Source: an uncultured Verrucomicrobiota bacterium (lineage in GTDB: Bacteria; Verrucomicrobiota; Kiritimatiellia; CAIKKV01; CAITUY01). From it: DNA of 58,817 bases. The stretch is taken from the NCBI GenBank assembly GCA_964458765.1, contig CAYWKN010000001.1, positions 1 through 58,817 of the forward strand, in the 5' to 3' direction. How positions within the stretch are numbered: the stretch's first letter is position 1; every line of letters starts with the position of its first letter. The notes beneath the pieces were generated by a model that saw only the letters and a program-made list of their open reading frames with translations, did not search any database and was not told the origin of the DNA. The position numbers and the translations under genes are program-made. Positions 19,660 to 58,817 of the stretch are shown one piece after another.

Positions 19660-19663
19660 TCCC

Positions 19664-42386: not shown

Positions 42387-43997
42387 TTAGCGAATCAGGC
42401 GTCGAATCAATGCGGTCGCGATGTGCGCAAGCTCTTCCACGCGCAACAGGAAGCACATCCCGGCGTAGACTGCCCCACCCGCGCCGATCGAGGTCATGAC
42501 CCGGGCGGAACTCCACCCTACGGACTCGGCACAAGCCGGCATCCACGAAGCCACTTGATGCGCGGCATATCCGCAGGCCGATGACGCCAGCAGGATGGCG
42601 CCCATGTAACGAATCCACCGCTGCCAGCTCCCGAAAGTGATATCGCGGCGCAAGTAGAGAGCCAGTTGTGCGAAGTTCACCAGCGCCAGGACGCCCGTCG
42701 TTGTGGCCAGCCCCACGTGTCCCCAGTGAAAACACTTCACCAGAATCAGGTTGAGCACAAGGTTGGCCCCGATCCCGGCGAGGCTGACATGCAGGGGAGT
42801 CCGGGGTCGGTCCAGAGCATAGAAGCAGGGCGTCAGCACCTTGATCGCCGCGTATCCGGCAAGGCCTATGGTATAAGCCCGCAAGGCCGCGGCCGTCATC
42901 CGCACCGAAGCGGCGCTGAATTGCCCGTGCTGATAGATGAGAGAAATGATGTCGGGCGCCAGCGCCACCAGACCGGCCGTGGCGGGAATCGTGAGAAAGA
43001 AAGCCAGCCGCAGAGACTCCTCGACGGTTCGTCCCACGGCCGCCAGATCCGAGCGTGCCTGGTCGCGCGCCACGGAAGGCAAGGTAACCGTGGCGATGGC
43101 CACACCAAACACCCCGATCGGAAACTGCATCAACCGGAAGGCGCAATTCAGCCAGGAACGCGCCCCATCCATCTCGGAGGCAAACATGCCGTTGATCAAC
43201 ACGTTAACCTGCACCGCCGCACCGGCGATCATGCTGGGCCATGCCAGCGCCCAGACCTGCCGGAGCCGCGCATCCCCCGGCTCAAAGCGCCAGTGCCAGC
43301 GAAACCCCTGCCTCCATAACGCCGGCATCTGCACGCAGAGTTGCGATAGCCCGCCCAGCAGCACGCCCAGACTGACTCCGTACAAGGCCCGCTCTGTAAA
43401 GTGCGGATGCCTCCAGTCGGACTGTGGATCAAACACCAACGCCAGTCCGACACCTGCCGTCACAGACACCAGATTGAACACTGTGGAAGCCGAGGCCGGA
43501 AGGCCAAACACACGCCGCGCATTGAGAATGCCCATGACGACGGAAGCCAGGGAAACCATCAGGATAAACGGGAACAGGATCCGGGTCAGTCGGACCGTAA
43601 GTTCAAACTTTCCCGGAACATGGTGAAATCCGAAATTGGTGACCTGTACCAGGAGCGGGCTCAGGAGGATGCCGAGAATACAGATCCCCCCCATGAGCAC
43701 AATCATGGCGGAGAACAGGAGGTTGGCCAGTCTCCACGCCGGCGTCTCGCCTTCCTTCTCCAGGGTCTTGGTGAAGGTCGTTGTGAACGCCGTCGAAAGG
43801 GCGCCTTCCGCGAACAGGTCCCGCAGAAGGTTCGGGATTTGAAACGCCGCCAGGAAAGCATCCAGGTGCTTTCCAGCCCCGAACATGGCGGCGAAAACCT
43901 GTTCCCGCACTAACCCCAGGATCCGGGACCCCACCACTGCCAGGCTTACGATGCCAGCCGCCTTGCGCCGTCCCCGTTGTGATGTCTCCGATTCCAT
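42387..43997 (-). CDS. murJ: Lipid II flippase MurJ
   Basis: 536 aa, polytopic. The MurJ N-terminus is recognisable (SRILGLVREQVFAAMFGAG...DAFLAAFQIPNLLRDLFAEGALS). Confidence 0.93.
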   Translation of the reverse strand: MESETSQRGRRKAAGIVSLAVVGSRILGLVREQVFAAMFGAGKHLDAFLAAFQIPNLLRDLFAEGALSTAFTTTFTKTLEKEGETPAWRLANLLFSAMIVLMGGICILGILLSPLLVQVTNFGFHHVPGKFELTVRLTRILFPFILMVSLASVVMGILNARRVFGLPASASTVFNLVSVTAGVGLALVFDPQSDWRHPHFTERALYGVSLGVLLGGLSQLCVQMPALWRQGFRWHWRFEPGDARLRQVWALAWPSMIAGAAVQVNVLINGMFASEMDGARSWLNCAFRLMQFPIGVFGVAIATVTLPSVARDQARSDLAAVGRTVEESLRLAFFLTIPATAGLVALAPDIISLIYQHGQFSAASVRMTAAALRAYTIGLAGYAAIKVLTPCFYALDRPRTPLHVSLAGIGANLVLNLILVKCFHWGHVGLATTTGVLALVNFAQLALYLRRDITFGSWQRWIRYMGAILLASSACGYAAHQVASWMPACAESVGWSSARVMTSIGAGGAVYAGMCFLLRVEELAHIATALIRRLIR

Positions 43998-44891: not shown

Positions 44892-45701
44892 ATGGACCTA
44901 TTGATACAAACGCTCATTATTGGCGGGACCGGATTGGCCTGCGCGGCCATTCTGGCTGTCGCGGCCCGTTTTCTGGCCGTTCACGAGGATCCGCGAGTCG
45001 AAACCGTCAGCGCCATGTTGCCGGGAATCAACTGCGGAACCTGCGGGTTTGCCGGCTGCGCCGAATACGCCAAGGATGTCGTTCTGCATGGCGCTGCCGC
45101 GGACCTGTGCAAACCCGGCGGAAGCGAGACCGCCGCGCGCATCGCGGCATTCATGGGGGTTGAGGTGTCTGAGAGTGAGCGGCAGGTGGCCATCGTGCTG
45201 TGCAAGGGCGATAACACGGCTGCCAAACGCACCGTCGGCTATAACGGACTCCTGGATTGCGGCGCCGCCCAGCAGGTGGGCGGCAACGGGAAGGCATGCC
45301 GGTACGGATGCCTTGGGTTGGCCTCATGCGCGCGGGCATGTCCGGTTGGCGCCATCGAAATCCGCGACGGGTTGGCCACGATCCACCCCGGATTGTGCAT
45401 AAGCTGCGGAAAGTGCGTGGTGACCTGCCCGCGACGCCTGATCCGCATGGTGCCTGAATCGCGCAGCCTTCATGTGCTCTGTTCCTCGCTGGACAGAGGC
45501 CCGGAGGTGAGGAAGGTCTGCTCCGTCGGTTGCATTGCCTGCACGCTGTGCGCCAAGGCCGTCAATGGCCAGGGAATTGCCATGCGAAACAATCTGGCGG
45601 TTGTTGACTACACGGTCCCTCTAACGGAGGAATCCATAATTGCCAAGTGTCCCCAGCATACGATCGAGAAACGTCCCGGCACCAAGGGAGAAGCCGCATG
45701 A
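44892..45701 (+). CDS. rnfB: Rnf complex subunit B (polyferredoxin)
   Basis: 269 aa. An N-terminal TM helix, the CGTCGFAGC cluster, and several CxxCxxCxxxCP motifs. Confidence 0.93.
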   Translation: MDLLIQTLIIGGTGLACAAILAVAARFLAVHEDPRVETVSAMLPGINCGTCGFAGCAEYAKDVVLHGAAADLCKPGGSETAARIAAFMGVEVSESERQVAIVLCKGDNTAAKRTVGYNGLLDCGAAQQVGGNGKACRYGCLGLASCARACPVGAIEIRDGLATIHPGLCISCGKCVVTCPRRLIRMVPESRSLHVLCSSLDRGPEVRKVCSVGCIACTLCAKAVNGQGIAMRNNLAVVDYTVPLTEESIIAKCPQHTIEKRPGTKGEAA

Positions 45702-47068
45702 AGACGCTGCGAGCACTCTTCAACCCGCGCGGAGGAATTCACCCCGCCTACCACAAGGAGGCAACCGACTCCACCAGGGTGGAGGTAATGCCGGTCCCCA
45801 AGACGCTGTACGTGGCCCTGAACCAGCACCTGGGCGCACCGTCCAGGCCGGTCGTAAAGAAGGGAGACACAGTGCTGCGCGGGCAGCCACTGGCGGAATC
45901 CGCGGGGTACGTGTCGTCATGGGTTCATGCCCCCACTTCCGGCATCATCAAGGCCGTGGAATCACGTCTCACCGCGGGCGGACAACTCGCAACCGTGGTG
46001 GAAATTGAGGCCAATGGGGCCGACCAGGCGATCGAATCCCCTGCCCCCGCTACTGACTGGCGAGTCATGCAAACGCGTGAACTGGTTGACCTGATACTGC
46101 AGGCCGGAGTCATAGGGATGGGAGGGGCCGGCTTCCCTACCCAGGTCAAGCTTCTCCCCCCGCCCGGAAAGACCATCGAGACCCTTGTGATCAACGGTGC
46201 TGAATGCGAGCCATACCTCACGGCCGACCACCGCCTGATGGTCGAGGAATCCGCAAGAATCAGCCAAGGCATCCAGATTGTGCAACGGATTCTCGGCGCG
46301 ACGAAGGTGCGCGTAGCCATCGAGGACAACAAGCCTGAAGCGATTGCCGCCATGGAATCGGCCTTGAAGATGGCGGAGGGGGATATTCAACTGGTGGTCG
46401 TGAAGACCAAGTATCCCCAAGGCGCCGAAAAGCAGCTGATCTATTCCTGCACCCGCCGGGAGGTGCCGAGTGGCGGACTGCCCATGGATGTGGGCGCATT
46501 GGTGGAGAACGTGGGCACCGCGGCGGCCATCAGCGACGCCGTGTTTCTCCGCCGGCCGCTCACCGAGCGGGTACTGACCGTCACCGGCGATGCCGTGGCC
46601 AACCCGAAGAATGTCCTGGCCCGCGTTGGAACCAGTTTCCGCGACTTGATTGGCTTCTGCGGCGGCCTCAGGGGGCCGGTGGGCAAAGTTATCTGCGGCG
46701 GGCCGATGATGGGGGTGGCGCAGAGCTCCCTGGATGTGGGAATGAACAAGACCACCTCCGGGCTTCTACTCCTCTCGCGTTCGCAGGTTCACCAGTACAC
46801 CTCCACACCGTGCATAGGCTGCGGTCGCTGCGTGCAGGCCTGCCCCTCCAGCCTGTTGCCGTGTTTCCTCAGCGAAAACCTGGAAGCGGAGAATTTCGAG
46901 GAAGCGGAGCGACTGAATGTGCTGGATTGCATTGAATGCGGCGCCTGCGCCTTTGAATGTCCCGCCCATCGGCCCCTCGTCCAGCATATGCGGCAGGGCA
47001 AGGCCAAGGTTATCCAACTCCGGCGGCAGCGCGAGACCAAAGCCTCCAGAAAAGAGAAGGCAACATGA
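45698..47068 (+). CDS. rnfC: Rnf complex subunit C
   Basis: The track ORF is 45647..47068. The ATG at 45698 overlaps the rnfB stop (ATGA) and gives MKTLRALFNPRGGIHP. GMGGAGFPT is present, along with two 4Fe-4S motifs (CIGCGRCVQACP, CIECGACAFECP). Confidence 0.93.
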   Translation: MKTLRALFNPRGGIHPAYHKEATDSTRVEVMPVPKTLYVALNQHLGAPSRPVVKKGDTVLRGQPLAESAGYVSSWVHAPTSGIIKAVESRLTAGGQLATVVEIEANGADQAIESPAPATDWRVMQTRELVDLILQAGVIGMGGAGFPTQVKLLPPPGKTIETLVINGAECEPYLTADHRLMVEESARISQGIQIVQRILGATKVRVAIEDNKPEAIAAMESALKMAEGDIQLVVVKTKYPQGAEKQLIYSCTRREVPSGGLPMDVGALVENVGTAAAISDAVFLRRPLTERVLTVTGDAVANPKNVLARVGTSFRDLIGFCGGLRGPVGKVICGGPMMGVAQSSLDVGMNKTTSGLLLLSRSQVHQYTSTPCIGCGRCVQACPSSLLPCFLSENLEAENFEEAERLNVLDCIECGACAFECPAHRPLVQHMRQGKAKVIQLRRQRETKASRKEKAT

Positions 47069-48075
47069 GCGATACAACCTCTGAGTGGATTGTCAGCCCC
47101 TCCCCCCATGCCCATTCGGGAGATACGGTCCCGAAGATCATGGGGACCGTGATTGTGGCATTGCTGCCCGCATTGGTGGCAGGTGTCGTTTTCTTCGGCT
47201 GGAATGCCGTGCGCCTTACGGCCATTTGCGTGGTCTCCTGCGTAGCCTCCGAATACGTGGTGCGGCGGATCATGCGCCGCGACCCCGGCATCAATGACCT
47301 GAGCGCCGTTGTCACCGGGATCCTGCTGGCGCTGAACCTGCCCCCCACCCTGCCGGGTTGGATGGCTGTGGTTGGATCATTGTGCGCCATCGTCATCGCC
47401 AAGCAACTCTACGGCGGCATAGGGTATAATCTCTTCAATCCTGCCTTGGTGGGCCGCTGTGTCTTGCTGGTGTCGTTCCCCGTGGCAATGACCACCTGGG
47501 CCGTTCCGAATTTTGCTCACATCCCCCCCGTGGACGCCACGACCATGGCCACCCCGTTGGGCGCATGGAAGACCGCCTGGTCAGCCGGTCAGGCTCCCTC
47601 CGCCTTTCAGGACACCTTCCCCCTCCGCGCCCTGCTGATAGGGAACCGCCCGGGTTGCCTGGGTGAAACCTCCACCATTGCGCTACTGCTGGGCGGCATT
47701 GTGCTGCTGTGGCGCCGCTGCATTACGTGGCACATCCCGGTGGCCTTCATCGGTTCAGTGGCGGTCTTTGCCGCCATTCTGCAACAAACGGACCCCGCCA
47801 GGAATCTTCCCGTTTCCTATCACGTCTTCAGCGGGGGTATCTTTCTTGGCGCTTTGTTCATGGCCACGGATATGGTCACCACCCCTGTCACCAGCCGCGG
47901 CATGCTTCTTTTCGGCGCGGGCTGCGGCGTGATCACAATGATCATCCGAAAGTGGGGCGGATACCCGGAGGGGGTGAGTTTCTCGATCCTGATCATGAAC
48001 GCCCTGACCCCCCTGATCAACCGTTTTACGCGTCCCCATGTGTTTGGCCACGCCGTCAAGGAGAAGACAGCATGA
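47065..48075 (+). CDS. rnfD: Rnf complex subunit D
   Basis: The track ORF is 46957..48075. The ATG at 47065 overlaps the rnfC stop. Polytopic, with SPSPH near the N-terminus and the FMN-attachment region (FMATDMVTTP). Confidence 0.93.
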   Translation: MSDTTSEWIVSPSPHAHSGDTVPKIMGTVIVALLPALVAGVVFFGWNAVRLTAICVVSCVASEYVVRRIMRRDPGINDLSAVVTGILLALNLPPTLPGWMAVVGSLCAIVIAKQLYGGIGYNLFNPALVGRCVLLVSFPVAMTTWAVPNFAHIPPVDATTMATPLGAWKTAWSAGQAPSAFQDTFPLRALLIGNRPGCLGETSTIALLLGGIVLLWRRCITWHIPVAFIGSVAVFAAILQQTDPARNLPVSYHVFSGGIFLGALFMATDMVTTPVTSRGMLLFGAGCGVITMIIRKWGGYPEGVSFSILIMNALTPLINRFTRPHVFGHAVKEKTA

Positions 48076-48650
48076 AGGAAATCCTGAAATTGCTCGCTGC
48101 CCTCACCATCATCAGTTCCGGCGCGGGCTTGCTTCTCGCGTACACCAACAAGGTTACCGCTGGGCCTATCGCCGCTGCCCGCCAGAAGGAAACCACCGAG
48201 GCATTGAAAGCCGTACTGCCCGACTTTGATAACGATCCGGCGGACTGCACCTGTTCGTTCGAGGAAGGCGGACGGACTTGGGCCTTTCACGTGGCCCGAA
48301 AAGCGGGCCGGTTCAGCGGAGCCGCGTTTCAGACCTCTTCCAGCAAGGGGTATGGCGGCGAGATATCCCTGATGGTCGGGCTGTCGGCCACCGGTACGGT
48401 CAACAGCGTGCGCGTCCTCACACAGCACGAGACACCCGGCCTCGGGACCAAAGTCGCCGAGGAACCCTTCAAGAGTCAGTTCAACGGAAAACCGATTGAG
48501 GGGACCGTCTGGGCTGTGAAGAAAGACAATGGACATTTCGATGCCGTCACAGGCGCGACGATTTCGTCCCGGGCCGTCCTGGAGGCGGTGCGCAACGGCC
48601 TGGATGTCTACCGCAGGCATGCAGCGGAAATCGCTCGCACAGGAGAATAA
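48072..48650 (+). CDS. rnfG: Rnf complex subunit G
   Basis: This is the internal frame of track ORF 47709..48650. The ATG at 48072 overlaps the rnfD stop and gives MKEILKLLAALTII. The FMN-binding motif DAVTGATISS is present. Confidence 0.92.
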   Translation: MKEILKLLAALTIISSGAGLLLAYTNKVTAGPIAAARQKETTEALKAVLPDFDNDPADCTCSFEEGGRTWAFHVARKAGRFSGAAFQTSSSKGYGGEISLMVGLSATGTVNSVRVLTQHETPGLGTKVAEEPFKSQFNGKPIEGTVWAVKKDNGHFDAVTGATISSRAVLEAVRNGLDVYRRHAAEIARTGE

Positions 48651-48652
48651 CC

Positions 48653-49357
48653 ATGGGATTTTCCAAGGAACTCAAGAAGGGACTGTGGGACGAGATCCCC
48701 GTGTTTCGCGTCGTTCTGGGCCTCTGCCCCACGATTGCCGTGACCACCTCGCTGATGAACGGGATTGGCATGGGCGTCGCGGCAACCTTTGTGCTCATTT
48801 GCTCCAATCTCATGGTGGCAGCCCTGCGCAATGTCATTCCCGACAAGGTGCGCATACCCTCGTTCATTGTTATCGCCGCCACCTTCACAACGGTCACGGA
48901 CCTTGTCATGAACGGATTTGCCCACGAGGTGCACAAGAACCTGGGCATCTTCATTCCCCTGATCGTCGTGAACTGCATCATCCTGGGACGAGCCGAGGCA
49001 TTCGCCGCCAGGCATTCCCCTTGGCTGGCGCTGGCCGATGCCATCGGGATGGGGCTTGGATTCACCATCGCCCTGGCGGTCATCGGTTCCATACGCGAGA
49101 TCCTTGGGAATGGAACGTTGACACTCTGGACACCACTGGCTTGGACGGTCAAGGGGTATGAGCCCGTGCTACTGCTGATCCTGGCGCCCGGCGGTTTCAT
49201 TACGCTGGGACTCATCCTGGGGCTCATGAACAAGATTGAGGAACGTCGTGCCGCCAAGGCGGGAAGAGCCTGCTCCCCCCCGGCGGATTTCGACTGCCGT
49301 CATTGCGTCATCTGCAAGTGGGGAGTATCCGCGCCATCGGATTCGCCACCCGCCTGA
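48653..49357 (+). CDS. rnfE: Rnf complex subunit E (with a Cys-rich C-terminal extension)
   Basis: 234 aa. The RnfE core is recognisable (VLGLCPTIAVTTS...). The last ~27 aa carry C-x7-C-x2-C-x2-C. Confidence 0.92.
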   Translation: MGFSKELKKGLWDEIPVFRVVLGLCPTIAVTTSLMNGIGMGVAATFVLICSNLMVAALRNVIPDKVRIPSFIVIAATFTTVTDLVMNGFAHEVHKNLGIFIPLIVVNCIILGRAEAFAARHSPWLALADAIGMGLGFTIALAVIGSIREILGNGTLTLWTPLAWTVKGYEPVLLLILAPGGFITLGLILGLMNKIEERRAAKAGRACSPPADFDCRHCVICKWGVSAPSDSPPA

Positions 49358-49381
49358 TACGCCGCCGGCGGCCCCTTCCAG

Positions 49382-49756
49382 ATGACCATGCCCATGATCT
49401 CCTCCAGTCGACAGGCCGTGCTGCTGCACAATGGCCGTCCCCTTTTGCCGTGCCTCCTTCTTGCGGCACGGTTTCAACATCGCCTTCTGGGTTACATGGG
49501 ACGGTCCGTCCCGCCGGCAGGCCATGGGATCTATTTGCGCCCTTGCGCCGCAATCCACACGTGTTTCATGCGCTTCCCGATAGACGCGATCTTTCTGGAT
49601 CGTCAGCTATGCGTGACGCGTATCGCACGCCGCATCCCGCCATTCCGGATTGTCATGGGCGGTCGGGCCGCCGACGGCGTAATCGAAATCCCCTCCGGCA
49701 ACAAGGAAATCAATGCCGTTGCGGCAGGCGACCGACTGGCAATCCTTCCGGGTTGA
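49382..49756 (+). CDS. DUF192 family protein
   Basis: 124 aa. The pattern ...RLLGYMGR......GIYLRPC.AIHTCFMRFPIDAIFLD....V fits DUF192 (COG1430). It starts 24 nt after rnfE. Confidence 0.7.
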   Translation: MTMPMISSSRQAVLLHNGRPLLPCLLLAARFQHRLLGYMGRSVPPAGHGIYLRPCAAIHTCFMRFPIDAIFLDRQLCVTRIARRIPPFRIVMGGRAADGVIEIPSGNKEINAVAAGDRLAILPG

Positions 49757-49826
49757 GGCCCCCACGCGGATACATTGCGCAGCCTCATCAGGCATTCCCC
49801 CACCAGAGCCATCTAACCGGGCAAGC

Positions 49827-51155
49827 CTAGTTTCCGGCCGCAGGCGCCTTGTCCACGGACTCGACATCCTTGCCCTTGATCGTGCGAAAGATTCCCGGCC
49901 TGGTCTCCACCTCGATATCGCCATCCGGGAATCGTCGTCCCGCAACTCCCGAAACCGTTTCCCCTGACTTCAGCCGTACCACCGTATCCGCGACGAAATT
50001 TCGCTTGAGAATCTCCCGGAGCCGGACGACCTCGCCTTGCACGATCGCTATTCTCTTCTCCAGGGATGTATACCCCTTCTTCCGCAACTCGACTGTATGC
50101 TCACCCACCCCAACCTCGATCCGCAACGGATCGGTGGGCTTGTCCGTTCCCGCCGGGAACGCCCCCCGCTCCACACCGTCCACCAGGACCGACAGACCGG
50201 GCTGCTCGGCGATCACCTCGAGCATTCCCACCTTTCGCACCAGCGTGAACTCCTCCACGCGTGTATCCCTCCGCTTCACCTCCACGACACGCGTCTGGCT
50301 CTCATGGCCCTCCAGTTCGACTTTCAATGTGTAGGTTCCGGGAGGGATCGCATCCAGCGTCAACGGCGATTGCCCCCGCAGCCGCTCATCCACAAAGACC
50401 TTGGCTCCGGCAGGCGTACAGACGACCGACAGCGTGGCGGGGAGCGGCTGGAGCGTGACCTGGACAGTGTGGTCTTCCCCGGCGCGGAGCTTCACCGTAT
50501 CCTGATACGCCAGATACTCTGCCAGGGTCAGGGCGACTCTATTATCCCCGCTCGGAAGGCGCTCGATGATGCACGGAGTCACGCCTTTGGAAAGTCCGTT
50601 CACCGTCACGGCTGCCCCAGGCGGCGTGGACTGCACCGTCAGATTCGCCGAATCCGAAGTTAGCGACAGGAGCACCCGGCGGGGCGCACGGTTTTCCACC
50701 AGAAGGTCCACCTCCTGGCTCAGGTAACCGACGGACGAAGCCCGTACGCGGTATCGGCCAAGGGGCAAATCCGTGATCAAGAGCGGCGTCCTGCCGCGGT
50801 TCGCCCCGTCGATCAAGATCTCGGCCTCGCTGGGCGCGGAGTGGATCAAGACCAAACCCTTCTCCGGTTCCAGCCGCAGTTCCAAAGCTGCCTTTTGCCC
50901 GGGACTGAGTGTGACCGTCCGCCGGGCGGGCAGATGGCCCGCCAGATCCGCCTGGATCAGATGCGGTCCGCCCGACAGGTTGTCCAGCACTACCGGGGTC
51001 TGGTCGCGCAGGATGCCATCGCATGTCACCGCCGCGCCTTCGGGGATCGAGGTAACGCGAAGCTGGGCCGGGGCGTCCAGCGCCAGACAGCGGAACGTCC
51101 CGGCGCCCAACGTTACGATCAGCCCCATGCTCCACGCTTTGGTCAACATTCTCAT
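49827..51155 (-). CDS. Secreted multi-PEGA-domain protein
   Basis: The track ORF is 49827..51251. The start is taken at MRMLTKAWSMGLIV..., whose ATG overlaps the upstream stop (ATGA). A signal peptide is followed by about 5-6 PEGA-like repeats (S.P.GA.V..DG...G.TP........G.H......GY). Confidence 0.75.
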   Translation of the reverse strand: MRMLTKAWSMGLIVTLGAGTFRCLALDAPAQLRVTSIPEGAAVTCDGILRDQTPVVLDNLSGGPHLIQADLAGHLPARRTVTLSPGQKAALELRLEPEKGLVLIHSAPSEAEILIDGANRGRTPLLITDLPLGRYRVRASSVGYLSQEVDLLVENRAPRRVLLSLTSDSANLTVQSTPPGAAVTVNGLSKGVTPCIIERLPSGDNRVALTLAEYLAYQDTVKLRAGEDHTVQVTLQPLPATLSVVCTPAGAKVFVDERLRGQSPLTLDAIPPGTYTLKVELEGHESQTRVVEVKRRDTRVEEFTLVRKVGMLEVIAEQPGLSVLVDGVERGAFPAGTDKPTDPLRIEVGVGEHTVELRKKGYTSLEKRIAIVQGEVVRLREILKRNFVADTVVRLKSGETVSGVAGRRFPDGDIEVETRPGIFRTIKGKDVESVDKAPAAGN

Positions 51156-52459
51156 GGCTTCTTTTCCGTTGCGAGACGCCGTTCCACATCCACCAGTTTC
51201 CTGTAGGCATTGCGGTGCCGCTCGTCCGACCGGTCCTGGATCATTTCGCACACCTGCCGCAGTTGCACTGCGGCTTCCCGCCAGTCGCGCAACTTGACGC
51301 TTCGCTCGGCCATGAACCAGATGTTGTCGTAGCGTCGCTGCAGTTCGCGTTCACTATCCGCCCGGCCCGTCAGGATCTCGGCGTAGAAATCCGGCTTCGG
51401 TTCGATGGTCTCCAGGCACCATTCCGCCTCCGTGAAGGACCGGATGGCGCGTGCGAGATTTCCGGGATCCACCTCCCGCTCCTCATACAGCTTCCGGCCC
51501 AAGAGGAAAGATTCCCGGGCACGGTTCTGAAGTTCCCCCGGCTCTATCGCCAGAGCCGCCAGGCCGAGCTCATTCTTGCTGAATTCCTCAAGCTGGCTGC
51601 GAAACCGTGCCACCCCTTCCGGCTCGACTTGGTTGAGCACACGAACACGATGCGTCCGGCTGCCGATGGTTACACTGACATCAGTGGATTCGTGGATTCC
51701 CGGAGCCACTCCCTCGTACTCGGAGAGCAGGTCAAAGAACCCCGCCTGCTCGCATACCCGACCGAGTTCCTCCAGAAGTTCCGGCGCCACCTTCTTTTCC
51801 CGTCGTACGTGCCTGTCGCTGGCAAGATCATCCACCTGTACCACCAAACGGTTCTGCGTGATGGACATGTAGAACCGGAAGATATTGGAGACGCTGCCCT
51901 GGACCCGTTCAAAAACGACATCGAATTCGGGAAGCTGCCCCGCGATGGCCTGCTTCGGGGATTCCGACGCCGAACGGCGCAGCGCCCCCGTGACCCACTG
52001 GCGCCAAGGAAGCCAGGCCAGGAGGGAAATCAGGACCATGACGGCCAATGCGCCATAGAGCCAGCGGCGCAGTGGCTTCGCGTTCGCCATCCCCCCACCC
52101 TTGCCGAAGCCGAGATTGATTCCGGACTCTCCAGGAGCACCCGGCGGCGCTTCCTCCCGCCGGTCATGGGTCACCCGCATGGTCGTTTCCCCGAGGCTGC
52201 ACCTGTCACCGACGGCTAGCTTTCGCTCCTCAACCTCGGCATCATTCACCACCGTCCCGTTGGCGCTTCCCAGGTCCGAAATCCACAACTGCCCACCATC
52301 GTCGAAATACAGGCGGCAATGGAAACGCGACAGGGCCGGATCTTCCATCGAAATGTCGTTGCGGGAGGATCTGCCGATCCGGATGCCCGCCGCGGGAACA
52401 AGGATTTCGCGCCCCTTTTCCGGACCGCTTTCCACTATCAGATGCACATGCCTGGCCAT
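51152..52459 (-). CDS. FHA-domain protein with a central TM helix and a large C-terminal helical domain
   Basis: The track ORF is 51152..52489. The start is taken at MARHVHLIV. FHA signature (IRIGRSSRNDISMEDPALSRFHCRLYFDDGGQLWISDLGSANGTVVND), a TM helix (WLYGALAVMVLISLLAWLPW), then about 270 aa that are unassigned or TPR-like. Confidence 0.75.
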   Translation of the reverse strand: MARHVHLIVESGPEKGREILVPAAGIRIGRSSRNDISMEDPALSRFHCRLYFDDGGQLWISDLGSANGTVVNDAEVEERKLAVGDRCSLGETTMRVTHDRREEAPPGAPGESGINLGFGKGGGMANAKPLRRWLYGALAVMVLISLLAWLPWRQWVTGALRRSASESPKQAIAGQLPEFDVVFERVQGSVSNIFRFYMSITQNRLVVQVDDLASDRHVRREKKVAPELLEELGRVCEQAGFFDLLSEYEGVAPGIHESTDVSVTIGSRTHRVRVLNQVEPEGVARFRSQLEEFSKNELGLAALAIEPGELQNRARESFLLGRKLYEEREVDPGNLARAIRSFTEAEWCLETIEPKPDFYAEILTGRADSERELQRRYDNIWFMAERSVKLRDWREAAVQLRQVCEMIQDRSDERHRNAYRKLVDVERRLATEKKP

Positions 52460-52542
52460 AGTCACACCGCCGCTGAAGTTGCCCAACAATAAGGCCCGCA
52501 GCTGAAGCTGTCAACAAGCCCGCACGCCCCCGCCCGGTTGCC

Positions 52543-53472
52543 TCAGAACTGCCTCAACACCTGTAGGATGATCGGACCCAACAACACCAGGAATACCGCC
52601 GGGAAAATGAACGCCACCAGGGGGAAAAGCATCTTGACCGGCGCCTCGTTGGCCAGTTTCTCGGCCCGCTCAAACCGCCGCTGACGCATCTGATCCGCCT
52701 GGATCCGCAGGATCGCCGCAATGCCGACGCCCAGCTCATCCGCCTGCACCAAGGCGTTCACAACGGAATGCACATCCCGGTGATCCACCCGCTCGGCCAT
52801 GTCGCGCAGGGCATCCCGGCGCGTCTTGCCAAGCTGGATCTCCCGCAGGACCCTGATGAATTCCTCGCCCAGGGCATCCATGCGACGGCGCTCGACGATG
52901 CGCTGTATGGCATTCATGAAATCCAGCCCGGCCTCTACCGAAAGGGTCAGCAGATCCATCACAAACGGCAGTGCCCGCTGGATTTGCCGCTGACGAGCCT
53001 TGAGAACTCCGTTCAACCACACGACCGGATAGACACAGTACCCGCCAAGGATGGCCACGACAAACAGGGTCTGGTGTTCCCGCAATGCGAGCCCGGCACG
53101 GCCGGGCACCATGGCAAACACAGCCCACACAAGGGTAACGGCCAGGGAACCCAGCAGGACAGGAAGCAGGACCCGCAGCGCCAGGAATTCCTCGGCCGTG
53201 AGAGCGCCCGCAAAACCTGCCGCCACAATCCGGCGGTTTACCCGGTCGCAAGCCGCGCGGAACCGGGGCTTCTCAAAGATCGGCGTCAGGTTCGGCGCCA
53301 GCGGCAGCAGCAGGCGGAACACGAACGGAACCGACCGCTCCTCCCTGCACCCGTCGGCGAGGGTCACATACGTGACCGACCGCAGCACCTGGGCACACTG
53401 CCAGGCGGCCAGTGCGGCAAAGCAGCCCCAGACTGCGCTCAACCCCCAAAGTGCCATTGCATCGCCATTCAT
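52543..53472 (-). CDS. tadC: Tad/Flp pilus platform protein TadC (T2SS F family)
   Basis: 309 aa. The T2SSF domain is recognisable (LPFVMDLLTLSVEAGLDFMNAIQRIV...LGKTRRDALRDMAERV...ELGVGIAAILRIQADQMR). Confidence 0.85.
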   Translation of the reverse strand: MNGDAMALWGLSAVWGCFAALAAWQCAQVLRSVTYVTLADGCREERSVPFVFRLLLPLAPNLTPIFEKPRFRAACDRVNRRIVAAGFAGALTAEEFLALRVLLPVLLGSLAVTLVWAVFAMVPGRAGLALREHQTLFVVAILGGYCVYPVVWLNGVLKARQRQIQRALPFVMDLLTLSVEAGLDFMNAIQRIVERRRMDALGEEFIRVLREIQLGKTRRDALRDMAERVDHRDVHSVVNALVQADELGVGIAAILRIQADQMRQRRFERAEKLANEAPVKMLFPLVAFIFPAVFLVLLGPIILQVLRQF

Positions 53473-53477
53473 GATGC

Positions 53478-54365
53478 CTACACGTCAATACGGATGATTT
53501 TCGCGATCACCAGTCCGCCAAGGACTTCCAGGGCAACTACAACCCCGAGAAGCAAAAGCCCGAAACCCGAATGCAGGAACGCCACCATCATCACGGGATC
53601 GAGCACATACATGGCGAATCCCAGCAACAGCGGCATGAGCCCCACCACGATCCCCTGCAGCCTGCCCTGGGCCGTCAGTGTCCAGATCCGCTGCTCGATC
53701 CGCATCCGCTCCCGGATCGTGTGCGCGATCTTCTCGAAAACCTCCGTCAGATTGCCGCCGGTCTGCCGGGCGGTTTCGATCGCCCCGACCATCAGCGCCA
53801 GATCTTCGCTGCCCACACGTTCCTGCATGCTCTGCAACGCCTCATCCATCCGCATGCCCACCCGCGTCTGGTGCAGGAAAGTCCCGAATTCCTGCGAGAT
53901 GGGGTTCTGGCGCTCGCGGACCACAAGTTCAAACGCCTGCTGTATGCTGAAACCGGCCTTCAGCGCATTACTCATGCCGACCAGGCTGTCCACCAGTTGC
54001 AGATTGAACCGACGCAACCGCCTGTGCCGGAGCACCCGAAGCGCTGTCCGGGGAATGTTCCAGCCGCCGGCCCCCGCAGCCAGTCCCACTAGCATGCCTG
54101 CCGCGAACGAACGCCCCTCGAATCCGCCGGTCAGAAGAAATCCCAGCAGAAAACACACGCACGCCGAAGTCATTGCCAGCTCCAGTACGCGACGCGGCGG
54201 AATGAACAGGAAGAGATCCTCCATCTGTCTGGCCGTGAACTCGGAGTACGATACCGCGTACTCCGCCGCCGCGGCCTGCAGCGACCGCAGGATCGAATAG
54301 GCCAGTCCGCCTATGCTGAGCATGTACAGCAACGGCAGGGTCCACATGGCGGCCGCTTCCGTCAT
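53478..54365 (-). CDS. tadB: Tad/Flp pilus platform protein TadB (T2SS F family)
   Basis: 295 aa. The T2SSF domain is recognisable (LVDSLVGMSNALKAGFSIQQAFELVV...ALQSMQERVGSEDLALMVGAIETARQTGGNL). The start overlaps the cpaF stop (ATGA). Confidence 0.85.
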   Translation of the reverse strand: MTEAAAMWTLPLLYMLSIGGLAYSILRSLQAAAAEYAVSYSEFTARQMEDLFLFIPPRRVLELAMTSACVCFLLGFLLTGGFEGRSFAAGMLVGLAAGAGGWNIPRTALRVLRHRRLRRFNLQLVDSLVGMSNALKAGFSIQQAFELVVRERQNPISQEFGTFLHQTRVGMRMDEALQSMQERVGSEDLALMVGAIETARQTGGNLTEVFEKIAHTIRERMRIEQRIWTLTAQGRLQGIVVGLMPLLLGFAMYVLDPVMMVAFLHSGFGLLLLGVVVALEVLGGLVIAKIIRIDV

Positions 54366-56053
54366 GCACCACCCCGCTTCTGTTCAAACAGGCTGAAATC
54401 CACAGCCATGCCCCGCGCCTTCAACTCCTCCAGGAACGTGGGCACTGCGCCAGTGGCCTGGAACTGTCCCGCTACCCTGCCCTGGCCGTCCACGCCTTTC
54501 TGAACAAACAGGAAAATGTCCTGCATCGTGGTCCGGTCCCCTTCCAGCCCCACCACTTCCGAAACGTGCGTCACCTTGCGCGATCCGTCGCTGAATCGTG
54601 ACTCGTGGATGATAATGTCCACCGCCGCGGCTATCTGTTCACGGATCGCCCGAACCGGAAGGTCCATGCCCGACATCAGCACCAGTGTCTCCAAGCGCGA
54701 CATCACGTCCCGCGGCGAATTGGCATGGACAGTGGTCAGGGACCCGTCATGCCCCGTATTCATCGCCTGGAGCATGTCCAGCGCCTCGCCCCCGCGGCAC
54801 TCCCCCACCACAATCCGATCCGGACGCATGCGCAGCGAGTTGCGCACCAGATCCCGGATCGTCACCGCTCCCTTACCCTCAATATTCGGCGCCCGCGATT
54901 CCAGCGATACCACGTGTGCCTGTTTCAATTGAAGTTCCGCTGCATCCTCGATGGTGATGATCCGTTCGTTTTCGGGCAGGAAACTGCTCAATACGTTCAG
55001 CAGCGTTGTCTTGCCCGAGCCGGTTCCGCCGGACACGATGATGTTCCGCCGCGATACCACGCAGGCCCTCACAAAGTCTCGCATGGCGGCCGACCAGGTG
55101 CCCAGCCGGATCAACTCTTCCTCCGTCAACGGCTGCTTGGCGAACTTCCGGATGGTCAGGCAGGGGCCGCTCAACGACAGGGGGTGCATGATGGCGTTGA
55201 CCCGCGAACCGTCCTTGAGGCGCGCATCCACGTATGGCTGGCTTTCGTCAATACGCCGCCCCAACGGCGACACGATCCTCTCGATCACGGCCATCACCGA
55301 CTTGTCGTCGAGAAAAGTTCGGTCTGTCAACTCGATCTTGCCGTTCCGTTCCACGTAGACCCGCGACGGACCGTTGACCATGACTTCGGTAACGGAGGCA
55401 TCCGCCAGCAGATCCTCCAGCGGGCCAAGCCCGACGGCCTCGTCATACAATTCCTTGACCAGGCTTTGCGGCACGATGTCCGGCGGCAGCTTCGGGGCCA
55501 CTTCCCGGACGATCCCTTCCAAGGTGGAAAGAACGCGCCGATGCAGTTCGGCGTCTTCCACGTGTGAGGCCGTCAGCCTCTTGATGTCCAGCCTCTCGAT
55601 CAGCTCCTGATGAATCTGCCGTTTCACGGTCTGCCGCCGGGTGAGCAGGCGGTCGTCCCGTGCGGTTGGCTCCGGAGCGGTCGCGCCGCCCACTGGTTCC
55701 TGCACATTGGGTGTTGCGACCGCGGGCGGCAAAACGACATCGGGTTCAGACTTCGGCTCCGGCTTACGCCGGTGCACACGAAGCAGGACAGAGCCCATCC
55801 GGATGTCCTGGCCGTCCAGGACTTCCGCCCGGCCCCGGACGGTGTGTCCGCTCACAGTCGTCTTCCCCATGCTCAAGTCCTCGACCCAGCATCCGCCCGG
55901 CCGGAGGCACACGATCGCATGTCGGCGGGCCACGTCGCCGCCCGTCACGACAACCTGGTTCTCGCGGTCGGAGCCCACGGAGTAGATGCCGGTCTCAAGT
56001 TCCCGCCATTGTTCCTGGGCATCCGTCTGCCTGATTTCGAGAAACATGTTCAT
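54362..56053 (-). CDS. cpaF: CpaF/TadA secretion ATPase with an N-terminal FHA domain
   Basis: 563 aa. Residues ~1-95 are FHA-like (YSVGSDRENQVVVTGGDVARRHAIV...WVEDLSMGKTTVSGHTV), followed by a Pro-rich linker and a typical CpaF core (Walker A GGTGSGKTTLLN, ERIITIEDAAEL, GHDGSLTTVHANS). Confidence 0.88.
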   Translation of the reverse strand: MNMFLEIRQTDAQEQWRELETGIYSVGSDRENQVVVTGGDVARRHAIVCLRPGGCWVEDLSMGKTTVSGHTVRGRAEVLDGQDIRMGSVLLRVHRRKPEPKSEPDVVLPPAVATPNVQEPVGGATAPEPTARDDRLLTRRQTVKRQIHQELIERLDIKRLTASHVEDAELHRRVLSTLEGIVREVAPKLPPDIVPQSLVKELYDEAVGLGPLEDLLADASVTEVMVNGPSRVYVERNGKIELTDRTFLDDKSVMAVIERIVSPLGRRIDESQPYVDARLKDGSRVNAIMHPLSLSGPCLTIRKFAKQPLTEEELIRLGTWSAAMRDFVRACVVSRRNIIVSGGTGSGKTTLLNVLSSFLPENERIITIEDAAELQLKQAHVVSLESRAPNIEGKGAVTIRDLVRNSLRMRPDRIVVGECRGGEALDMLQAMNTGHDGSLTTVHANSPRDVMSRLETLVLMSGMDLPVRAIREQIAAAVDIIIHESRFSDGSRKVTHVSEVVGLEGDRTTMQDIFLFVQKGVDGQGRVAGQFQATGAVPTFLEELKARGMAVDFSLFEQKRGGA

Positions 56054-56086
56054 GCCGCCGTTCCCTCGCCGGGAAGCCTAATCCAA

Positions 56087-56905
56087 TCAATTGCCGCCTT
56101 TTCGCCGGATCTTCGCCTGGCGGTGGTCATTCAGGGTCTGGAGTTCCCCTTCCAACTTGTCAAAATTGATTTCGGGAAGCTCGCGCTCGTAACTCACGTC
56201 GCCCGGATTGCGCAGCGCCAGGGTCAGATGACCGCGCATGTTCTCCGCGAAGGCCAGAAGTTCCGCCTCGCGTGGCGTCACTTCCAGCGTCACCGTGCTA
56301 TAGCCGGTGCTGCGCCCCCGCTCCTGGCCATCGCCCTGCCCCGCCAAGGTCTGGCCCGTCGCCAGAACCGTCACGTCCTGCAGCACCGTGAGTGTAACCC
56401 ACTCCATCTGCTGCGGGTTCTTGCGAGACGGGAATGTGAAGGATCCCAACACATCGACACGGTCATTGGGCCGTAGAAGTCCGCTGACGCCCGCCGCTCC
56501 GCCAATGGTGATGGAGAGCGCCCGCATGCTCTGGGCCACCATGGGCCCGAGCCCCGATCCCGGCCGGTACGGAACATCCATGTAAGACCACAGCAATGTC
56601 TCGCCCATGTCCATGCTGTACTTGAGCTTCTTGCCCAGGATTTGCTCGACATCCTCCGGCAACACCGTGTTCTTGCCGACATCCCGCGCCAGCGAAGGCT
56701 TCATTTTCAGGTCCTTTTTCTGCAGGACCGTTCCCGCAGGAAGTTCACGACCCGCGGCTATGACGTCGACGCGGCGTTCTGCCGAGATCAACCGCTCCCG
56801 CTCCCTGGCAAACTCCCGCGCCCGCGCCTGGAAGTACTCGCGCGTCAGCCAGAATGCCAGCAAGCCGACCACAACCGACAGAATCAATATCATGCGCTGT
56901 TTCAT
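56087..56905 (-). CDS. cpaB: Flp pilus assembly protein CpaB (SAF domain)
   Basis: 272 aa. An N-terminal TM helix, a SAF-like region (VDVIAAGRELPAGTVLQKKDL), and an RcpC/CpaB C-terminal beta domain. Confidence 0.85.
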   Translation of the reverse strand: MKQRMILILSVVVGLLAFWLTREYFQARAREFARERERLISAERRVDVIAAGRELPAGTVLQKKDLKMKPSLARDVGKNTVLPEDVEQILGKKLKYSMDMGETLLWSYMDVPYRPGSGLGPMVAQSMRALSITIGGAAGVSGLLRPNDRVDVLGSFTFPSRKNPQQMEWVTLTVLQDVTVLATGQTLAGQGDGQERGRSTGYSTVTLEVTPREAELLAFAENMRGHLTLALRNPGDVSYERELPEINFDKLEGELQTLNDHRQAKIRRKGGN

Positions 56906-56906
56906 A

Positions 56907-57647
56907 TCACCTGTCTCCCGTACTGCTGTTCATCCCGCCCCGCTTATGTAGCAAGGTTATTCTTGTTTCGCCACCGGATTCCGCACGGCGGCAGAGAATC
57001 CAGCACAGGTCGGCCCCCCTGCTGAAGCCCGCCAGTCCTGCCCCGGCTGTCCCGCGCGGCAGTGGTGCTACCGGCCTCCAGCCGTCGCGCGCCAGTGCCG
57101 CCCGATAGAACGCCAGCGCGGCGGCCGGGGAATCCGTCGTCCCCGAGATCTGCATCGTCGTCCGGGTATCCTCATTCCGCATTACCCTTCGGATTGTCGC
57201 CTCCCGATACACAGGCAGCCCTTCGGCGAGACCGCCTTCATCCCTGTCGGGTTTCCCTGCCGTCGCGCGGGTCGAGATGGCCACTGCCACTCCCTCTTTC
57301 CCCGCCGGAAGTTTCAACATGCGCAGAGTGTGGCCACCCTCCCGGAGATCCGCGAAGCCAATGGACGATCCGCTGGCATACCGGAGCGAACGGCCGCCGG
57401 CAAACGCTCGGATCCGCGACCCCCACTCCTCGGGACTTCCCGGGGCATTCAGAACGCTCACGTGCGCCGGCCGTCCATCAACCCGAACTTCGGCCTCGTA
57501 GAGAACCCGGCCCAGCGCCGATACGTCAAACGGCTTATTCCCGGAACCAGAGCCAGCCTGGCGAAACACACGTGCCGCCGACGGCAGCGCCGCAAGGCCG
57601 ACCGCCATCAGAACACATGCCGCCATCCCTGTGCCACGACGGATCAT
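56907..57647 (-). CDS. Secreted hypothetical protein embedded in the Tad locus
   Basis: The track ORF is 56907..57680. The start is taken at MIRRGTGMAACVLMAVGLAALPSAA (signal peptide), 2 nt after the upstream stop. I recognise no family. Confidence 0.5.
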   Translation of the reverse strand: MIRRGTGMAACVLMAVGLAALPSAARVFRQAGSGSGNKPFDVSALGRVLYEAEVRVDGRPAHVSVLNAPGSPEEWGSRIRAFAGGRSLRYASGSSIGFADLREGGHTLRMLKLPAGKEGVAVAISTRATAGKPDRDEGGLAEGLPVYREATIRRVMRNEDTRTTMQISGTTDSPAAALAFYRAALARDGWRPVAPLPRGTAGAGLAGFSRGADLCWILCRRAESGGETRITLLHKRGGMNSSTGDR

Positions 57648-57649
57648 CG

Positions 57650-58174
57650 TCAATAGATCCCCCGCGTCCAGATGAGCCACGTTTCACCCCGCACCTCCAC
57701 TTCGTCCGCTGCATACAGCAGATGGCGCACAATCGGCCACAGCGGCACAGAGTCCTCCTGACGCCCCTCCACCAGGCCGAACATCAGGTGCGGATAGGGC
57801 GATCCTGCCATGGCCGAAACCGGATTGTCCGGACGCTGCCGGCCCAAGTCATCGGGATCTGCATAAGCGGGGATCCCGGCCAGGAACGCATTGACATCGC
57901 CAGGCGTGTATTCATCATCCCGCGAGTACCGGGTGACATCGCCCCCCTCCGTACGGTCCGCCATGAAACGGGGCGAGGACAAGGGGGCGGCATCACCCAT
58001 GGCAAGGCGCGCCGCCTCACGCCGCGACTCGTTGACTACACGAGTGTGCCGGATCCCCAGGGTCCCGACCTGGAGGATGCCCGCGACGAGAACCATCAGG
58101 ACGACCAGCGCAATGACCAGTTCAGCCATAGCCTGTCCTTCCTGCCCGCCCCATCTTGATCGTTCACACTGCAT
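57650..58174 (-). CDS. TadE-like pseudopilin / pilus assembly protein
   Basis: 174 aa. The N-terminus GGQEGQAMAELVIALVVLMVLVAGILQ resembles the TadE/TadF-type prepilin-like hydrophobic segment. Confidence 0.6.
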   Translation of the reverse strand: MQCERSRWGGQEGQAMAELVIALVVLMVLVAGILQVGTLGIRHTRVVNESRREAARLAMGDAAPLSSPRFMADRTEGGDVTRYSRDDEYTPGDVNAFLAGIPAYADPDDLGRQRPDNPVSAMAGSPYPHLMFGLVEGRQEDSVPLWPIVRHLLYAADEVEVRGETWLIWTRGIY

Positions 58175-58182
58175 GCTTCACA

Positions 58183-58817
58183 CTAGTGTCCGCGTCGCGT
58201 CCCGCCTCCCGGACCACCGCCTCCACCACGGGTTTGACACCTGTCCGAGTATTCCCGCAGCCAGTCAATGCCGCGCTGCCGGAACAGCGGATCCTCCCAG
58301 GTCAGCAATTGCGCGCAATACCAGCACTCCGCCGCTCGATCCAGCGTCGGTCCTGTCCGCATGTATCCGGGCAGGTGTCCCTCAATGTGGTCGCGCCATG
58401 CCAGGTTGAAGGCGCCGCCAGCGGGAGCGGATGATGCATCAATGGGGATCAGCCGGATATCCCGGTACGCAGGCAGGACCAGCCCGGCCTCCGTCGGCTT
58501 GCCTTCCTCCCCCAGCCGACCGAAAGGCTTGGCCGCCGCTGACCACGTGATCAGGCTGGAGCGGGACCGCGGTGTCAGACGCCTCGCTTCGGCCTCCACA
58601 CGCGCCGCGGCGTCGGCCCCTGCGTAGTCATACGCCGGTTTTACAGTGCCCGTCACAGGGAACGGCCACTCCCCTGACGGCAAAATCGCAGACCATGGCC
58701 CCCACCATGCCTCCTCGTAGGCGTACCAGACCGAAGTAACGCTGGCGACACTGTTGCTGATCAGCAGCTCGCTCAAGTCGCGCTCCGCACGCAAGGTATT
58801 CATGAGGTCGACAACGT
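58183..58817 (-). CDS. Hypothetical protein of the Tad locus, probably partial (frame open to the right edge)
   Basis: The track ORF starts at M 58803, but the frame stays open to base 58817 (..VVDLMNTLRAERDL). The C-terminus is Gly-rich (TRGGGGGPGGGTRRGH). It could be the C-terminal part of a TadG-like protein; this is unverified. Confidence 0.45.
   Translation of the reverse strand, partial: VVDLMNTLRAERDLSELLISNSVASVTSVWYAYEEAWWGPWSAILPSGEWPFPVTGTVKPAYDYAGADAAARVEAEARRLTPRSRSSLITWSAAAKPFGRLGEEGKPTEAGLVLPAYRDIRLIPIDASSAPAGGAFNLAWRDHIEGHLPGYMRTGPTLDRAAECWYCAQLLTWEDPLFRQRGIDWLREYSDRCQTRGGGGGPGGGTRRGH

Follow-up and report, generated by a model that had tools for sequence, protein, structure and literature searches.

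A Kil-like Tad/Flp pilus locus with an FHA membrane protein and a PEGA-repeat partner in an uncultured Kiritimatiellia bacterium

In the usual descriptions, a Tad pilus is built from a fixed set of parts, among them a secretin, TadZ and a peptidase of its own. A Tad-like apparatus, Kil, serves Myxococcus xanthus in the contact-dependent killing of prey (PMC8460266, PMC12075869). Compared by gene description and gene order, Kil is the closest known system to the locus described here, which occupies the end of a window of 58,817 nucleotides (by window we mean the whole stretch of DNA that was analyzed) from an uncultured Verrucomicrobiota bacterium of the class Kiritimatiellia (GenBank assembly GCA_964458765.1, contig CAYWKN010000001.1). 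The locus is a previously undescribed variant of a known machine: it is devoid of a secretin gene of its own and possesses a conserved gene pair, one member of which encodes a membrane protein with a forkhead-associated (FHA) domain and one transmembrane (TM) helix, referred to below as FHA-TM, and the other a protein with five PEGA repeats. We consider it probable that we are dealing with a complete and functional Tad/Flp (type IVc) pilus operon, and that this operon represents an FHA-bearing, Kil-like subclass widespread in Kiritimatiellia, Lentisphaeria and other Verrucomicrobiota.

The operon and its continuation beyond a scaffold gap

The hallmarks of a Tad pilus are present at the locus: a CpaF/TadA ATPase, the split TadB/TadC platform, an Flp pilin, CpaB/RcpC, and minor pilins of the TadE/F/G type. 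Read along the minus strand, the operon runs flp, tadE, tadG, tadE/F, a gene for a secreted protein without assigned family, cpaB, FHA::cpaF, tadB, tadC, the FHA-TM gene and the PEGA gene; uvrC, followed by other housekeeping genes, borders it upstream, and a convergent rnf operon lies downstream of the PEGA gene. An earlier note on the window had described nine co-directional, tightly packed open reading frames (ORFs) on the minus strand at 49827-58817, and our ORF and family searches recovered them with the same coordinates and gene identities (Table 1), save for one supposedly separate gene that is discussed below. The same searches bore out that neither a secretin nor Flp, an A24 peptidase or TadZ is encoded within the window, and the view that this is not a textbook tad operon stands. 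The spacing of the genes is narrow: cpaF and tadB share 4 nt where the one stops and the other starts, and the ATG of the PEGA gene overlaps the FHA-TM stop as ATGA at 51152-51155, an overlap which the note had reported and which we confirmed by reading the sequence directly. All operon genes are open, and each is kept at 30-80% identity in the same order across many genomes; TadC orthologues in syntenic loci, for instance, are 53-79% identical, and relatives keep the identical 12-gene order down to about 40% identity. The genome holds no second copy of CpaB, TadB or TadC, and hence a single Tad set.

Table 1. Features of the Tad locus within the window
Feature	Coordinates	Strand	Evidence
PEGA protein with five repeats, 442 aa, last operon gene	49827..51155	-	PF08308, E 2.4e-62, five stretches
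FHA-TM protein, bitopic, 435 aa from ATG 52459 (ORF 51152-52489)	51152..52459	-	PF00498, E 1.2e-17; PF16697, E 3.3e-16
83-nt gap between tadC and the FHA-TM gene	52460..52542	-	sigma-70-like TTGACA-17-TATTGT match at 52514-52486
TadC-type platform protein, 309 aa	52543..53472	-	one T2SSF domain, E 1.6e-16
TadB-type platform protein, 295 aa	53478..54365	-	one T2SSF domain, E 1.1e-16
CpaF/TadA motor ATPase with N-terminal FHA domain, 563 aa	54362..56053	-	T2SSE, E 3.5e-65; FHA, E 2e-7
CpaB/RcpC periplasmic ring protein, 272 aa	56087..56905	-	TIGR03177, E 6.8e-45; PF16976 and SAF
Secreted lineage-specific protein, 246 aa (ORF 56907-57680)	56907..57647	-	no Pfam or NCBIfam match
TadE/TadF-like minor pilin, 174 aa	57650..58174	-	PF07811, 22.1 bits against a cut-off of 22.9
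TadG-like minor pilin, C-terminal part of 211 codons (open-ended ORF 58183-58815)	58183..58817	-	no family match for the window portion

The window comprises the first 58817 bases of a scaffold of 73491 bases (C1), and it ends directly ahead of a spacer of 100 N (C1:58818-58917; L001 2819-2918). The 55 nt flanking this spacer are identical on both sides, which indicates that a spacer was placed between two contigs whose ends overlap by one k-mer; the gap is consequently artificial, and the reading frame that had been taken for a partial gene of its own, without known function, is the C-terminal part of the tadG product. The merged TadG-like protein has 480 residues, of which the window ORF supplies the C-terminal 192; the 288 N-terminal codons follow past the gap (C1:58973-59780, once the 55-nt duplicate has been removed), and the N-terminal part carries PF13400. 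In all 28 relatives that possess tadG (28/28), the protein aligns over the junction in one high-scoring segment pair. HMM searches, which the earlier note had proposed for 56907..57647 and 58183..58817, gave no family match for either stretch.

The suggestion that genes missing from the window might lie beyond position 58817 proved right for the Flp pilin and for further minor pilins, and wrong for the secretin, the peptidase and TadZ. The Flp pilin is encoded by an ORF of 70 codons (L001 4369-4581) whose product reads KSG/QGMVEYIIIV, a processing site of the G/xxxxEY type (the first slash marks the position of cleavage), and matches PF04964 with E 2e-5 and 24.7 bits, under the cut-off of 32.2. 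Also beyond the gap, a second TadE-like gene (192 aa) was found, to whose product the TadE/F-like protein of the window (57650..58174) is 29% identical; PF07811 is present on two genes of the operon, both TadE-like. A G/Q prepilin site is common to four pilin-like proteins (KSG/QGMVEY, RSG/QSLIES, RSG/QTLIFL and QEG/QAMAEL), and the site of the TadE/F-like protein in the window, QEG/QAMAE, can be read directly from the sequence.

The motor protein matches the TadA-family model with E 8e-106 (354 bits against a cut-off of 373) and the solved Caulobacter CpaF with E 2.8e-120; the latter alignment begins only at residue 97/145, and the FHA domain, at residues 24-87, precedes this CpaF core. CpaB scores 153 bits against the TIGR03177 cut-off of 71 and matches the solved RcpC structure 9gzr (E 4e-9). 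The secreted protein of 246 residues, whose syntenic orthologues are 21-43% identical, carries an A-RVF motif after its signal peptide and is predicted to fold into two alpha/beta lobes (AlphaFold2 [AF2] model, mean confidence [pLDDT] 78). A comparison of this model with PDB folds gave no match reaching E 1e-3, and a profile comparison revealed no relation to the periplasmic domain of FHA-TM.

Several other gene groups were recorded on the same scaffold. Three consecutive genes for PilB/PilT-like ATPases of the T2SSE family at about 17696-20971 of the window (plus strand), which are weak tblastn matches of CpaF, probably form a cluster of their own, for a type IVa pilus or for type II secretion. 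The rnf-type operon downstream of the Tad genes (44892-49830, plus strand) encodes an RnfB-like Fe-S protein, RnfC, RnfD, RnfG and RnfE, and murJ is located at 42387-43997 (minus strand). Beyond the window, a HepT-like RNase and an MNT nucleotidyltransferase are encoded on the minus strand at L001 16264-16891 (C1:72263-72890) and form a type VII toxin-antitoxin module.

Putative periplasmic partners and passage across the outer membrane

FHA-TM is predicted to consist of an FHA domain (residues 1-100), a disordered linker, a TM helix (127-148), an alpha/beta domain (178-297) and a five-helix domain resembling tetratricopeptide repeats (TPRs; 306-432), with the FHA domain facing the cytoplasm and the alpha/beta and TPR-like domains facing the periplasm (AF2 model, pLDDT 81). 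The canonical phosphothreonine (pThr)-binding residues of its FHA domain (GR / SxxH / NxT) are invariant in 15 orthologues. PF16697 (Yop-YscD_cpl) matches alongside the FHA model, and the top NCBIfam match of the FHA part is FhaB/FipA, far under the cut-off. A fold search with the model retrieved matches for the FHA domain alone, plus weak Mago-like matches for the alpha/beta domain, and when the C-terminal domain was searched against PDB as a profile, MacA entries alone came up, under the threshold (E ~0.005). This C-terminal domain, covered by no Pfam model, defines a profile with 978 cluster representatives; nearly all of these proteins are 420-530 aa long and carry the domain at the C-terminus. 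Full-length relatives of FHA-TM, from 78% down to about 40% identity, were found only in metagenome-assembled genomes labelled Kiritimatiellia, Lentisphaerae, Victivallales or Verrucomicrobiota. PVC (Planctomycetota-Verrucomicrobiota-Chlamydiota) bacteria likewise headed the matches in all the searches made with the components of the system. Elsewhere in the host genome, a second FHA-domain gene (C8:19028-19396), whose product is 34% identical to the FHA domain of FHA-TM, lies about 4 kb from a gene for a Hanks kinase (C8:23189-23842).

In this clade, the PEGA protein has a signal peptide of the SPase I type, while many distant orthologues bear a lipobox. It matches no PDB sequence. The idea that it might constitute an outer-membrane part of the machine found no support; in this clade its signal peptide is an ordinary one, and it has neither a barrel-sized region nor a lipid anchor.

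How, then, might the filament reach the cell surface? Between uvrC and the rnf operon there is no secretin gene. Two data sets extend this observation: the neighborhoods of 79 related loci, and an even sample of 301 genomes from the phylum, on which all phylum counts given here are based. No secretin is encoded within 10 kb of the approximately 79 loci, save for one unrelated case (L048), and none occurs in the distant-class versions of the operon. The host genome contains six secretin genes, all of them on other contigs. TadZ/CpaE-type ParA-like ATPases were absent from the operon in family searches; a genome-wide scan with the TadZ model PF16968 gave no match here and none in the control genomes either. 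No TadV/CpaA peptidase is encoded in the locus, and the sole A24 peptidase of the genome is of the PilD type (contig C15).

One candidate for the missing outer-membrane component is an orphan short secretin of 285 aa (C153:999-1853, plus strand) encoded beside an RluB-like gene and kept in some 30 genomes of the class. It was rejected: many Tad-negative genomes possess it, and many Tad-positive ones do not. We likewise sought Tad-positive genomes of the phylum that are free of secretins and found none; secretins occur in 295 of the 301 genomes, and every Tad-positive genome of the sample has at least two.

These data bear on a rival explanation, in which the machine would operate independently of a secretin: FHA-TM, PEGA and CpaB, maybe together with the 246-aa protein, would replace both TadZ and the RcpA/CpaC secretin, or the filament would stay in the periplasm in the manner of a pseudopilus. 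The rigid conservation of the operon without a secretin throughout the phylum, the near-complete lack of secretin genes around related loci and in distant classes, and the failure of the genome's only short, Kil-like secretin to co-vary with the system all speak in its favor. Yet, with at least two secretins per Tad-positive genome, supply in trans is possible; PMC12307814 describes CpaB/RcpC as coupled to the secretin in the systems studied; and PEGA repeats are soluble beta-sandwich domains that offer nothing of the size of a barrel. We therefore regard secretin independence as rather improbable, and a secretin encoded in trans as the simplest explanation for the passage of the pilus across the outer membrane.

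The FHA-TM/PEGA pair and possible phosphothreonine control

The earlier note had left open whether the FHA and PEGA genes are conserved next to Tad genes in relatives. The pair itself is nearly inseparable. In 70 of the 72 loci with enough downstream sequence, the PEGA gene directly follows that of FHA-TM, and in the other two it overlaps the FHA-TM gene, so that adjacency is effectively 72/72. The link to the Tad genes is looser: tadC lies directly upstream of the FHA-TM gene in about a third of the loci (23/67), and the 32 loci whose flanks each exceed 9 kb divide into 11 with the full operon in the same order, five with the Tad genes nearby in a rearranged state, and 16 without any Tad gene within 10 kb of the pair. 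Fourteen of the 16 genomes with an unlinked pair carry an orthologous CpaB elsewhere.

Across the phylum sample, the association is tight. The C-terminal domain of FHA-TM and an orthologous CpaB occur together in 115 genomes, FHA-TM alone in 2, CpaB alone in 12 and neither in 172; a pair-bearing genome consequently has this Tad type in 115 of 117 cases. Genomes that contain only a distant, second CpaB type are without FHA-TM. Four genera (g13, g21, g22 and g63) each hold both double-positive and double-negative members, meaning that the differences are concordant. Two complete genomes from a different class retain the order CpaB-FHA::CpaF-TadB-TadC-(DUF192)-FHA-TM-PEGA, with housekeeping genes on either side. 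One complete genome (G213, 6.1 Mb) has the set split into tadC-FHA-TM-PEGA versus cpaB-FHA::cpaF-tadB, the two parts being located 196 kb apart on the same contig (L114 and L115 on G213:C1). We conclude that FHA-TM and PEGA form a mobile yet dedicated accessory module of this Tad subclass.

The DUF192 gene deserves a remark of its own: in the distant-class version of the operon it sits between tadC and the FHA-TM gene (L112 12448-12882, plus strand), in a relative from Kiritimatiellia just downstream of the operon (L012 13371-13688, minus strand), and it is absent from the operon of the window.

One might view FHA-TM and PEGA instead as an independent envelope signaling module, concerned for example with the cell wall or division like the mycobacterial FhaB/FipA proteins, that is often parked beside tad genes. 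The pair is mobile as a unit in itself, and where it is unlinked it sits in other conserved neighborhoods, with a major facilitator superfamily gene upstream and a DUF4412 gene downstream; a promoter-like site precedes it in the window, and FhaB/FipA heads the NCBIfam matches of its FHA part, if only far under the cut-off. Against this stand the presence of the Tad type in nearly all pair-bearing genomes, the Tad operon found elsewhere in 14 of the 16 unlinked cases, the concordant losses of pair and Tad genes within genera, the conservation of the position after tadC across classes, the fact that tadC travels with the pair in G213, and the FHA protein at the corresponding position of the Kil cluster. 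This alternative appears unlikely to us. Even less credible is the proposal that the cluster is a mere remnant, in decay or chimeric through assembly, from which no pilus is made: the genome is indeed fragmented (242 contigs, 91% complete) and a scaffold gap interrupts tadG, but the genes are open, tightly spaced and conserved in identical order across many genomes, and the gap is an overlap artefact; once the two parts are merged, tadG runs colinear with its orthologues in 28/28 cases.

The earlier note had further proposed that the machine is gated by phosphothreonine. The host genome encodes four Hanks kinases, none of them at the Tad locus. One, a receptor Ser/Thr kinase encoded at C14:12945-16385 (plus strand), combines a kinase domain and a TM helix with a long helical stretch in the periplasm and leucine-rich repeats (LRRs) at the C-terminus. 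It is unlinked in this genome; of 15 related genomes inspected, at least 8 nonetheless encode the orthologue 0.4-1.6 kb from flp and divergent to it, among them one whose FHA-TM/PEGA pair is unlinked. An orthologue of this kinase was detected in 22 genomes of the phylum sample; 21 of these are CpaB-positive, and in five the kinase gene lies 5-7 kb from cpaB, on the opposite strand; with the periplasmic part of the kinase poorly conserved and detection confined to 22 genomes, these counts are evidence for adjacency and do not amount to a reliable table of presence and absence. The FHA domain fused to CpaF has lost the canonical pThr-binding R/S/N residues in most Kiritimatiellia orthologues and more likely acts, to judge from its sequence, as a phospho-independent interaction domain. 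Gating by phosphothreonine is hence supported by the pThr residues that FHA-TM has kept and by the recurrent linkage of the kinase in relatives, and it loses the CpaF domain and a kinase within the locus as arguments. From the residues conserved, FHA-TM is the likely reader of a phospho-signal, and the FHA domain of CpaF a poor candidate.

Taken together, these data lend themselves to a working model of the favored reading, a functional Tad pilus of an FHA-bearing subclass; as far as FHA-TM and PEGA are concerned, we infer their mechanism from architecture, co-occurrence and analogy. Flp and a TadE-TadG-TadE tip complex would be processed by the single PilD-type peptidase of the genome, and FHA::CpaF would polymerize the pilins on the TadB/TadC platform under the CpaB ring. 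FHA-TM would be a dedicated subunit of the machine, its pThr-reading cytoplasmic FHA domain docking on the phosphorylated motor, platform or kinase, and its periplasmic alpha/beta and helical domains would, with PEGA, form or stabilize a periplasmic part beside CpaB. This part may take over the role that TadZ has in recruitment and positioning. The trigger would probably be the receptor kinase with the periplasmic LRR domain, and the pilus would most likely leave the cell through one of the six secretins encoded elsewhere.

Several observations weigh against this reading. The pair is not beside Tad genes in half of the fully flanked loci (16/32), and the statistic for the co-occurrence of FHA-TM and CpaB (Fisher p 3e-66) was calculated with phylogeny ignored. 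The gap of 83 nt that precedes the two genes contains a promoter-like site, so that they might be transcribed and used separately; the match no more than hints at a promoter of their own, because a promoter and terminator scan of the region gave match counts not above chance. In this respect, the possibility raised in the earlier note that a canonical tad set lies upstream and that the FHA and PEGA genes are an independent transcription unit found no support in the upstream genes, which include neither secretin nor TadZ nor peptidase, and some in this gap. Furthermore, the FHA domain of CpaF is degenerate in this clade, no dedicated secretin was identified (the short secretin on C153 does not co-vary with the Tad system), and neither a kinase nor a phosphatase was found at this locus.

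A bolder version of the signal-controlled pilus, possible in our view although we lend it limited credence, holds that bacteria of the PVC group have a distinct, signal-gated class of Tad machines. The LRR kinase would license assembly via FHA-TM, and a periplasmic body of FHA-TM, PEGA and CpaB would replace TadZ and possibly the secretin, resulting in a contact- or cue-triggered pilus in non-predatory degraders of polysaccharides, analogous to Kil or to the phospho-regulated firing of type VI secretion systems.

Comparison with known trans-envelope machines

Our literature search found no paper on Tad systems of Kiritimatiellia or Lentisphaeria, and we know of no predatory lifestyle in this lineage. 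What emerges is a phylum-wide Tad lineage whose operon is without secretin, TadZ or peptidase and instead includes uncharacterized partners, namely a presumed phosphothreonine-reading membrane protein, with a periplasmic domain family of 978 representatives that lacks a Pfam model, and a five-PEGA protein. Should the pair have a structural or gating function, it would raise the questions of how a type IV filament machine is positioned without TadZ, how phospho-signaling activates it, and how a pilus of PVC bacteria crosses the outer membrane. At the same time, features of the Kil type (an FHA-fused motor, an FHA membrane partner and a tip trio) are extended beyond predatory bacteria.

With the canonical Tad systems, represented by flp-tad-rcp of Aggregatibacter, pilA-cpaA-F of Caulobacter and flp-rcp-tad of Pseudomonas, the locus shares Flp with its G/xxxxEY-type site, TadE/F/G, CpaB/RcpC, CpaF/TadA and the split TadB/TadC. 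It differs from them in that RcpA/CpaC, TadZ/CpaE, TadV/CpaA, RcpB and TadD are not encoded in the locus, and in the addition of an FHA domain on the ATPase, FHA-TM, PEGA and the secreted protein of 246 aa.

The resemblance to type III and type VI secretion systems is one of layout, and a relation in sequence is limited to the FHA domain. FHA-TM is arranged like YscD/PrgH, with a cytoplasmic FHA-like domain (the PF16697 match), one TM helix and a periplasmic domain; for the latter, however, no similarity could be detected, either to ring-building motifs or to any entry of the PDB. In type VI systems (PpkA kinase, Fha1/TagH), as here in relatives, a Hanks kinase with a periplasmic sensor is genetically linked to the FHA protein of a trans-envelope machine, whereas the kinase considered here has LRRs and, in this genome, lies apart from the locus.

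Bdellovibrio bacteriovorus offers a parallel in its TadZA, in which a regulatory or positioning module is placed on the N-terminus of TadA, and its tad loci likewise contain no TadV, so that the sharing of a peptidase with other pili has been proposed (bioRxiv 10.64898/2026.07.08.737194). The fused module is, however, a ParA/MinD-like TadZ rather than an FHA domain, and the RcpA secretin genes are kept in its tad loci.

The likeness to Kil extends over several components: the motor ATPase KilF bears an N-terminal FHA fusion, as CpaF does here (PMC8460266), and KilB-KilG-KilH (CpaB/TadB/TadC) are followed by the PrgH/YscD-like FHA protein MXAN_4649 and then by an FHA/TPR protein (PMC8460266, supplementary file 1), so that FHA-TM directly after tadC corresponds in position to MXAN_4649 after KilH. 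Both systems further have a TadE-TadG-TadF trio, which forms a tip complex in Kil (PMC12075869), as well as genes of unassigned function just upstream of cpaB, and both are without TadZ. Kil differs in being encoded in two clusters with its own short secretin, KilC, and its own peptidase, KilA, and in having no PEGA protein. In contrast, a single operon encodes all but the secretin and the peptidase in the Kiritimatiellia locus, and the FHA membrane protein is always accompanied by its five-PEGA partner.

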